Positions 26,213 through 27,382 of a DNA stretch of 64,000 nucleotides are shown here, piece after piece; position 1 is the first letter of the stretch, and the number at the start of each line of letters is the position of its first letter. The stretch lies in the NCBI GenBank assembly GCA_049968235.1, contig JBMFRC010000008.1, forward strand, positions 79,157 to 143,156, in the 5' to 3' direction. This DNA comes from Candidatus Hydrogenedens sp. (GTDB lineage: Bacteria; Hydrogenedentota; Hydrogenedentia; Hydrogenedentales; Hydrogenedentaceae). A model generated the notes under the pieces. That model was not told the DNA's origin and did no database searches. It saw only the letters and a list, made by a program, of their open reading frames with translations. A program made the translations under genes and the position numbers.

Positions 26213-27040
26213 ATGATGATAGGTGAATTAGAACTAAATAAAATCTATCAAGGGGATTGTGTAGAGCTACTAAGGAAACTACCTCCAAGTTCTATTGATT
26301 TAATTTTTGCAGATCCTCCATATAATCTTCAACTAAATGGAGAATTATACCGACCTAATCAAACAAAGGTAGATGCTGTAAATGATGATTGGGATAAATT
26401 TGAAACGATGGAAGATTATGATAAATTTACATACCAATGGTTAAAAGAATGTTACAGGGTTTTGAAAAACAACAGAAGTATCTGGGTGATAGGGACATAT
26501 CACAATATTTTTAGAGTGGGAGCAATACTTCAAAATATTGGATTCTGGATACTCAACGATATAATCTGGGTAAAAACGAATCCAATGCCCAATTTTAAAG
26601 GAACCAGATTTAATAATGCCCACGAAACCTTAATTTGGTCAACAAAGACAAAATTATCAAAATACACTTTCCATTACCATTCCATGAAGGTAATGAATGA
26701 TGATTTACAAATGAGAAGTGATTGGTTAATCCCTATATGTCAGGGAAATGAAAGGATTAAAATAAATGGGCAAAAAGCCCACTCTACACAAAAGCCAGCG
26801 GAATTGTTATATCGAATAATCATATCAACTTCAAATCCTGGTGATATTGTTTTAGACCCCTTCTCAGGTAGTGGAACAACCGCAGCAGTTGCAAAACGTC
26901 TTGGTAGAAATTTTATCGCATTTGATAAAGAAGAATGTTATGTGAAAATTGGAATAGAGAGAGTTAAAAAGATTATCCCTTTAGAAAAAACATATTTAGA
27001 ATACAAAGTGGAAAAAAGAAAACCAAAAGTTTCATTTTGA
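26213..27040 (+). CDS. CcrM/HinfI-family beta-class N6-adenine DNA methyltransferase; catalytic domain only, terminated by in-frame TGA
   Basis: Motif [12 protein letters not shown] lies N-terminal and motif [19 protein letters not shown] lies C-terminal, which is the beta-class order. The central block …[48 protein letters not shown]… is near-identical to CcrM as I recall it. It ends at TGA 27038-27040. Confidence 0.75.
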
Positions 27041-27382
27041 AATTTAATTGAAAAAGGGTATATCAAAATTGGGGAGTTCTTATATTCCAAAGATGGTAAA
27101 TACATCGCATGTGTTTTAGCAGATGTATCTATTCTTTACGATAACATAGCAGGTTCCATTCATAAGATAAGTGCTAAAATATTAGGAAAAGAAAATAATA
27201 ACGGCTGGACTTATTGGCATGTAAAAAGAGAAAATAAGATAATTTGTATTGACCAATTAAGATATGAATATGAAAAGAAATATCTTACGAGTTCTTTTGA
27301 TTATGGTATTTTTGACTTTGAAAAAGAATCTTCACTAACAGTCAAGGATGAAAGTTTCTTATATGAAAATAATGGAATATAA
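27041..27382 (+). other. in-frame continuation of the methyltransferase after the TGA, 113 codons encoding a CcrM-type C-terminal DNA-binding domain
   Basis: Same frame as 26213..27040 and open to TAA 27380-27382. It encodes …GSIHKISAKILGKENNNGWTYWHVK…, matching CcrM CTD motifs (GSIHKIGA…NGWTYWHF) as I recall them. Confidence 0.6.

Follow-up and report, generated by a model that had tools for sequence, protein, structure and literature searches.

A probable CcrM/M.HinfI-type methyltransferase pseudogene beside an intact-looking restriction gene in a mobile restriction-modification module of Candidatus Hydrogenedens

HinfI of Haemophilus influenzae and HpyAIV of Helicobacter pylori are type II restriction-modification (R-M) systems acting at GANTC. 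Both are composed of a beta-class methylase carrying a C-terminal segment of ~80 residues and an endonuclease of the HpyAIV/HinfI family, and the methylase gene (M) precedes the restriction gene (R). CcrM is an orphan methyltransferase with two domains, of which the C-terminal one spans residues 271-358 (PMC6787082). Alanine mutants of CcrM residues K118, R129, H134, and R179 lose more than 100-fold of the activity, and removal of the C-terminal domain abolishes it (PMC6787082). M.HinfI is the closest characterized R-M enzyme of this type, and the same truncation abolishes its methylation of double-stranded DNA (dsDNA) (PMC7672430). M.HhaII and other segment-less GANTC methylases are of a type that evolved to work without the segment and without strand separation (PMC7672430). 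In H. pylori, R-M systems such as HpyAXII decay at the strain level: components are inactivated by nonsense mutations, by deletions, or by missense changes, and a given locus may have or lack the whole module (PMC2588503). There, R is usually lost and M is retained.

The locus described here lies within a 64-kb stretch of DNA from an uncultured lineage, Candidatus Hydrogenedens sp. This whole stretch is called the window, and all coordinates refer to it. The features are as follows.

26079..28292, + strand: putative GANTC R-M module of ~2.2 kb, composed of its own upstream region, M, R, and a short 3' tail, and present or absent by lineage (empty sites in L056 and L060)
26202..26206, + strand: GANTC site (GAGTC), read from the sequence, overlapping the Shine-Dalgarno GGAG of M
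26213..27040, + strand: 5' part of the probable methyltransferase pseudogene, catalytic domain and linker, 275 codons, ending at the premature TGA (PF01555; 6PBD)
27038..27040, + strand: premature TGA in place of Gly276, presumably GGA to TGA by a G-to-T transversion, with the same TGA in L049 and L054
27041..27382, + strand: remnant of the C-terminal RAMA/CcrM-type DNA-binding domain and tail, predicted to be untranslated, in frame up to the original TAA at 27380-27382 (PF18755)
27363..27382, + strand: M stop/R start overlap, 20 nt when counted from ATG 27363 or 11 nt from ATG 27372, without a well-placed Shine-Dalgarno for R
27363..28235, + strand: HpyAIV-family type II restriction endonuclease gene (R), 290 aa, intact ORF, family-invariant Met at 27372 (NF045832)

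The order and composition of this module are those of HinfI and HpyAIV. Unlike in those systems, the host is an uncultured Hydrogenedens lineage, M has a nonsense codon in its frame and is decaying, the R ORF is open, and the specificity is a prediction. GANTC recognition by M is suggested by ~55% identity to CcrM, by conserved equivalents of K118, R129, H134, and R179, and by the HpyAIV-family partner.

The M frame opens at ATG 26213 and ends after 275 codons at TGA 27038-27040; the same frame then stays open for 113 codons until TAA 27380-27382. In Pfam, the N-terminal part matches PF01555 (N6_N4_Mtase) with an E value of 4e-68 and 230 bits (cut-off 26.7), and it has the motif order DPPY (residues 34-37) followed by FSGSGTT (residues 217-223). 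On both counts, the catalytic part is a beta-class N6-adenine DNA methyltransferase. The joined M protein aligns with the solved CcrM structure 6PBD over residues 11-352 (E 2.4e-130), and this alignment, together with the PF01555 match, agrees with the original prediction of a CcrM-family beta-class enzyme. The four CcrM residues named above correspond to K121, R132, H137, and R181 of the M core, all of which are conserved. Like CcrM, M has a two-domain architecture that can be aligned end to end, with conserved catalytic, recognition, and DNA-backbone-contact residues. Unlike CcrM, it comes from outside the Alphaproteobacteria, is paired with R, and scores 550.6 bits against the CcrM equivalog profile NF050803 of NCBIfam, below the cut-off of 830. 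M is an M.HinfI-like R-M methylase and not a CcrM orthologue.

The 113 codons beyond the TGA match Pfam PF18755 (RAMA) on their own with an E value of 1.2e-11, over profile positions 24-104. It had been considered beforehand that these codons might be unrelated to CcrM-type C-termini; the segment scores 44.9-51.6 bits against the Pfam cut-off of 35.2 and so is related, which upholds the proposal that a C-terminal DNA-binding domain is encoded in frame after the stop. When the two parts of M are joined, the match grows to profile positions 12-104 (of 107) and residues 266-356, and the stop therefore lies inside the domain, at about profile position 23 of 107, rather than between domains. The in-frame TGA separates the segment from the core and leaves it outside the predicted product. 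All five CcrM DNA-contact residues (S315, H317, N330, W332, and R350) are still encoded past the TGA, and all five are lost with the C-terminal domain from the predicted 275-aa product, which keeps the catalytic domain and the linker. By analogy with the CcrM and M.HinfI truncations, this product cannot methylate duplex DNA. It resembles M.HhaII and other segment-less methylases in being core-only and, as predicted here, in its recognition sequence. M, however, is probably a member of the segment-dependent clade, whose enzymes lose dsDNA activity on truncation.

In the 6PBD alignment, the TGA stands opposite the Gly of PRVPFGTIVEAG, which is Gly276 of native CcrM once the 8-residue offset of the PDB-derived chain is allowed for. 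The conserved residues of the C-terminal DNA-binding domain begin here. The original prediction had put the stop at a CcrM Gly, and this proves to have been right. Gly occupies the stop column in 17/17 aligned homologues and in 21/21 related loci that lack the stop, where its codon is GGA in 10, GGT in 6, GGC in 3, and GGG in 2. The closest relative with an intact M (L001, identical to L052), which has 90% protein identity and sits at the same locus, uses GGT; GGA is used by L055 (same locus, 83%) and by L051. A GGA-to-TGA origin, as first suggested, fits with GGA as the commonest codon at this site in relatives, and a single G-to-T transversion from GGA would be the simplest origin of the TGA.

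Two more NCBI assemblies of Candidatus Hydrogenedens sp. from the same lineage were found by exact look-up of the flanking proteins. L049 (GCA_049971155.1) is 99.6% identical to window positions 23125-34676 (11.5 kb), and L054 (GCA_049969095.1) is 99.9% identical to positions 17250-27623 (10.4 kb). All three assemblies are metagenome consensus sequences, apparently submitted in a single batch (JBMFLO and JBMFPN are adjacent accession prefixes). Both sister assemblies read TTT TGA AAT at the stop site, and each differs from the window by 10-12 SNPs. Each also has private lesions in M. In L054, TGG has become TAG at the invariant Trp60. In L049, GAT has become TAT at the invariant Asp294 (Asp294->Tyr), and a 28-nt out-of-frame deletion removes positions 27323-27350; both changes fall in the C-terminal remnant. 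No product is called for M in the NCBI assembly of either. Since the TGA is common to the three strains and the other lesions are private, the TGA is the older lesion and M has been drifting since; the further lesions in two strains indicate that M is no longer under selection. The RAMA segment, compared with the sister species, has an omega of 0.08 without sign of relaxed constraint, from which it follows that the stop is young compared with the divergence of the species. The window consensus is itself imperfect: a private substitution and a 1-nt deletion break a neighboring gene, and an Nramp-like gene is possibly split.

Outside these strains, M is whole. The 120 best homologues (<=90% identity) are all uninterrupted, at 362-416 aa, and have both domains. 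No stop in M was found in any of 47 genome loci, and a TGA at Gly276 was seen in none of the more than 140 homologues or loci examined beyond the three near-identical strains. An exact look-up of the 275-aa product returned no record.

These observations make it likely that M is a genuine, recently pseudogenized M.HinfI/CcrM-type GANTC methyltransferase in a horizontally mobile R-M module of ~2.2 kb. A recently inactivated methyltransferase was one of four readings offered at the outset, and a TGA that is common to three assemblies and private to this lineage, in a gene that is decaying, speaks for it. One G-to-T change at the GGA codon of Gly276 would have created the TGA, and translation would end after the catalytic domain and linker. 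The TGA would then have been inherited by at least three sampled strains, with later lesions in two of them.

The module is present in some lineages and absent from others. In the window, L001, and L055, M and R lie between the same 256-aa gene and thuA, and in L001 and L055 both M and R are intact. L056 and L060 have an empty site, in which the 256-aa gene is followed by thuA with ~134 nt between them; their homology to the window breaks off at ~26078 and picks up again at ~28293-28302. Identity between the window and L001 is 91-92% for M, R, and the upstream region, compared with 62-85% for the flanking genes. In the flanks, the empty-site L060 is closer to the window (81-88%). The dS of M and R is 0.30-0.34 versus 0.69-1.15 for flanking genes. 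Identity of the module above that of its flanks, together with the low dS, points to horizontal exchange of the module into the same locus. It is a mobile type II R-M module, as seen from both the presence/absence polymorphism and the disagreement with the flanks. Homologous M and R pairs occur in Ignavibacteria, Bacteroidales, Treponema, Cloacimonadota, and other groups.

R follows directly. It matches the HpyAIV family profile NF045832 of NCBIfam with 240.9 bits (cut-off 160), and residues 9-267 cover profile positions 1-265 of 269. The NCBI name of the identical protein is 'HpyAIV family type II restriction enzyme'. There is also a weak hit to NF045831 (HinfI), and Pfam PF09520 is found on R homologues. 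These matches confirm the suspicion that the ORF behind M is the cognate restriction enzyme, with the HpyAIV family being one of GANTC specificity. The R start is ATG 27363, as called in related contigs, or the invariant Met at 27372, and not ATG 27348; an exact look-up of the 295-aa version of R gave no record.

By sequence, R looks functional. It retains 81/81 invariant columns of a 37-member close-family alignment. Among 119 close homologues, it deviates at one of the 99 columns that are at least 98% conserved (N52D). It also keeps all 27 columns with a conservation of 90% or more in a set of 92 distant representatives (30-52% identity), including D99, E112, K114, and R116-S121. The putative PD-(D/E)XK residues D99, E112, and K114 and the RDDHDS block are thus all present. 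The AlphaFold model of R (pLDDT 86) has a PD-(D/E)XK-like strand and helix layout, and Foldseek hits are weak (best E 3e-3), all of them to nucleases of the PD-(D/E)XK superfamily. No solved structure was found among the sequence relatives of R. The R protein is identical in the window and L049. Five SNPs separate the two genes, all of them synonymous; they fall within 26 nt, and three match the sister species. This clustering and the sister-species matches give the SNPs the look of one recombination patch and not of a trace of selection.

GANTC is frequent in the window, with 132 sites in 64 kb, or one per ~485 bp, at an observed/expected ratio of 0.74. The depletion is mild and no stronger than that of several other palindromes, so it is uninformative on past or present restriction pressure. 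With M dead for some time, an intact R and frequent GANTC sites would not be expected. We agree with the earlier view that the intact neighboring restriction ORF is what makes the case notable.

How R has been tolerated may have to do with the way it is translated. The invariant Met of R overlaps the last 11-20 nt of M in 14 of 18 loci with M followed by R, from many phyla; in the remaining four, it is found 5-37 nt downstream. A Shine-Dalgarno-like motif at -20 to -5 of R is present in none of these 18 loci. In this genome, Shine-Dalgarno motifs are used by 58% of ORFs versus a background of 9%, and M has GGAG at good spacing. A promoter and terminator scan was at chance level (17 found versus 14.5 +/- 3.7 expected) and is silent on an independent R promoter. 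The overlap without a ribosome-binding site of its own is, as read from the sequence, a classic translational-coupling layout. Only ribosomes that reach the natural stop of M would go on to translate R, and a stop placed 330 nt upstream would break the coupling and turn R off together with M. In short, with its start overlapping the M stop and no ribosome-binding site to itself, R would be switched off by a premature M stop. Loss of coupling is the mechanism that we prefer for this step, and we propose it tentatively.

The same layout may serve the whole family as a fail-safe, in which the overlap lets only ribosomes that have translated full-length M go on to R, so that a nonsense or frameshift mutation in M silences R; in this general form the idea is doubtful. 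If it were true, a loss of M first would be survivable. It would also explain how nonsense codons in M come to lie beside an open R in two lineages, the window and L051, with a functional-looking R. L051 (standard code, GC 31%) is an independent case, in which GGA has become TGA at the conserved Gly88 of M and the R frame is open. Such a fail-safe would be a simple, general way for modules with M ahead of R to spare the host when the methylase mutates.

Coupling loss is not the only way in which R could be harmless. A second GANTC methylase elsewhere in the genome, whether an orphan, prophage-borne, or part of another R-M system, could protect the host, which would make M redundant and leave R useful. 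This would explain a functional-looking R beside a freely decaying M. Family orphans are widespread: 27 of 47 family methylase loci have no adjacent R, and two methylases are found at L029 and at L030. Against this stands the tblastn search of the 64-kb window, in which no second methylase was found, and we consider the explanation somewhat less probable than loss of coupling, and on balance unlikely.

R may also carry a subtle inactivating substitution. N52D, H57Y, and L53I are specific to the window lineage; all three fall within the conserved motif KILQNLLQSHEIRFG, with the highly conserved E58 next to them. N52D and H57Y each occur in 0/119 close homologues, and none of the three is found in the sister species with intact M. 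Taken as proof of a dead R, N52D and H57Y had to be downgraded, since both positions vary in distant members: among the 92 distant representatives, position 52 is N in 55, H in 13, F in 9, and Y in 6, and Tyr occurs at position 57. Tolerance of R through a substitution such as N52D or H57Y is rather improbable. A further step would be the classical order, in which R died first by missense and M was then free to decay, with the open R frame being a matter of time. The HpyAXII data give a precedent, as 40% of inactive R alleles have missense SNPs only (PMC2588503). In L051, too, residues that are deeply conserved are missing from the R beside the interrupted M, with deviations at 9 of the 99 conserved columns compared with a family maximum of 5. 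The variation at positions 52 and 57 in distant representatives and the full set of deep columns kept by the window R weigh against this order, and we regard it as improbable. A lack of time for R to break was also weighed; the three ORF-disrupting events in M versus none in R give p ~0.19 under equal neutral decay, which is not significant.

Other readings deny that M is dead. In one, the module is still active, either because the 275-aa core alone methylates GANTC or because trace near-cognate read-through suffices, and R is kept for that reason. The intact R and its solely synonymous differences from L049 would fit, as would a core whose catalytic and target-recognition residues are intact. 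Some natural GANTC methylases do without the C-terminal domain (M.HhaII, PMC7672430), and L043-L047 contain short relatives. Truncation of CcrM or M.HinfI at this domain, however, abolishes dsDNA methylation. The strain with Trp60->TAG (L054) is without even the core and yet has kept an identical R, and the synonymous SNPs look like a single recombination patch. An active module is very unlikely.

A sequencing or consensus error would mean that the true codon is GGA and that TTTGGAAAT was miscalled as TTTTGAAAT. The defects of the window consensus described above make errors conceivable, and the site is the boundary of a T run and a G, where a systematic long-read caller error is possible (TTTGG read as TTTTG). 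The same TGA is nevertheless read in the two other assemblies despite their SNP differences from the window. One of these assemblies breaks inside R, where the L054 and L050 contigs both end at 27623, in the manner of a short-read graph assembly, and each sister assembly has independent extra lesions in M, where random error would not concentrate. The early suggestion of a sequencing error is therefore given up as highly improbable.

In programmed recoding, Gly, Trp, or Sec would be inserted at the TGA, and the methylase would be full-length and regulated. The stop sits exactly on a Gly codon, the downstream frame is open with the DNA-contact residues kept, and downstream omega is low. UGA followed by A is a relatively leaky terminator, which also counts in favor. 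The TGA is, however, confined to the three near-identical strains, and neither Trp60->TAG nor Asp294->Tyr with the frameshifting deletion could be tolerated if a full-length product were needed. No Rfam recoding element, SECIS included, turned up in positions 25900-28400, and in structure the RNA behind the stop does not exceed shuffled controls (z = -0.30). No tRNA gene, and no suppressor tRNA among them, is present in the window. TGA ends other genes as well. The original prediction had called it an otherwise rare stop, which is not quite the case: it terminates 9 of 55 window ORFs of at least 120 aa, including ATGA stop/start overlaps. Of the two examples it had cited, the TGA at 11465 holds as a normal stop between two complete tandem GDSL-lipase genes, and that at 30088 does not, as it results from a frameshift private to the window's assembly. 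A genome-wide reassignment of TGA (code 4 or 25) is ruled out by these TGA-ended ORFs and ATGA overlaps. Selenocysteine insertion or a recoding RNA is likewise ruled out, with no Rfam hit near threshold. The marks of programmed read-through, selenocysteine, or reassignment were not found at this TGA, and the read-through reading fails on the destructive extra lesions and the missing recoding signal; we give it hardly any credence.

In a two-piece enzyme, core and DNA-binding domain would be separate polypeptides that assemble. In the CcrM dimer, one monomer's C-terminal domain functions together with the other's catalytic domain (PMC6787082), so a domain acting in trans can in principle be imagined. 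The idea is dismissed as extremely improbable: separate translation of the C-terminal piece is ruled out for want of an in-frame ATG, GTG, or TTG in the stretch from the TGA to the TAA (ATT, ATC, and ATA are the only codons of this kind there, and they lack Shine-Dalgarno motifs), the stop lies inside the RAMA profile, no homologue is split, and the later lesions hit both pieces.

The probable pseudogenization of M has a close parallel in the decaying R-M systems of H. pylori. The kinds of lesion and the presence or absence of the whole module at a fixed locus are alike. In H. pylori, however, R is the part usually lost, and here M is visibly broken and R looks intact. This is the one unusual feature of an otherwise ordinary case. 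The finding adds one more example to a known phenomenon, the decay of mobile type II R-M modules, and gives no evidence of a new mechanism. For annotation, M should be entered as a pseudogene and not as a 275-aa methylase or a recoded gene, and activity of R should not be assumed. For the lineage, it is a natural example of R-M module decay in an uncultured phylum, and its order is visible in three strains: a shared nonsense mutation, followed by independent lesions.

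The restriction-modification module, which comprises the interrupted methylase gene M and the HpyAIV-family restriction enzyme gene R, is polymorphic in Hydrogenedens: some lineages carry it and others lack it. The features of the module are as follows:

Window 26079-28292: restriction-modification module; the corresponding empty site lies at 3866-4001 in the related Hydrogenedens contigs L056 and L060.
Window 26202-26206: GANTC site (GAGTC) overlapping the methylase gene's Shine-Dalgarno sequence.
Window 27323-27350: 28-nt stretch absent from the near-identical strain L049.

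Between lineages, the module is 91-92% identical while the flanking genes are 62-85% identical, and this difference indicates that the module has been replaced horizontally through homologous recombination in the flanks. No transposase or integrase is found with the module at 26079-28292. The motif GTATAAATTATAA is present at the empty-site junction and occurs a second time shortly upstream of M (26172-26190).

Exchange may also have occurred within the genes. Compared to the sister species L001, the segment encoding the C-terminal DNA-binding domain of M (RAMA; 27041-27280) has a dS of 1.10, far above the 0.34 of the remainder of M and the 0.30 of R, and omega is similar for all three. The raised dS with similar omega suggests a mosaic origin, with a putative recombination breakpoint close to the domain boundary. 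At the 5' end of R, the window and L049 differ by 5 SNPs within 26 nt (27410-27435), all of which are synonymous, and 3 of the 5 match the sister species L001. The cluster directly adjoins the 28-nt deletion of L049 and has the look of a single short patch of recombination or gene conversion, not of mutations that arose independently. The deletion is flanked by short direct repeats (TGAAAAAG ... TGAAAG) and removes the GANTC site at 27326, the ATG at 27348, and the sole Shine-Dalgarno-like AAGGA upstream of R; with these elements gone, R expression in L049 may also be changed.

Homologous methylases are found at other loci:

L051, JGI Ga0308395_1001189, 7504-8679 (reverse-complement coordinates): M homologue.
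L029, 360-3072, and L030, 991-3640: related loci with a second methylase paralogue.

L051 is from an unrelated organism that uses the standard genetic code, and its methylase carries a GGA to TGA nonsense mutation at the conserved Gly88, independent of that in the window. The adjoining R is open in frame and has lost several deeply conserved residues (e.g., R35 and D118, window numbering). In L029 and L030, a shorter paralogue adjoins a full-length M and aligns to M residues 2-252 only, leaving the C-terminal domain unmatched; the gene order in L029 is M-R-M2, with the shorter paralogue immediately downstream of R.

Two further regions of the window contain split reading frames:

Window 29071-30410: 446-aa gene of unknown function, split into 339 and 107 aa by a lesion at 30059-30061.
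Window 46745-48501, minus strand: two overlapping ORFs of 353 and 266 aa (106-nt overlap).

The 446-aa gene is intact in L001, L049, L056, and L060. Its lesion combines a substitution with the loss of 1 nt (CCTGCG in the window, CCCGCTG in L049), and because the frameshift is private to the window's assembly, it may be a consensus error. The TGA at 30088, listed as a natural stop in the original prediction, is instead a product of this frameshift. The ORF pair matches the Pfam Nramp profile at positions 7-155 (N-terminal part) and 238-352 (C-terminal part) and may be another frameshifted gene, encoding an Nramp-family transporter, or an assembly error.

Finally, the GAGTC at the methylase Shine-Dalgarno sequence could be an autoregulatory site that responds to methylation, of the kind present in ccrM promoters.
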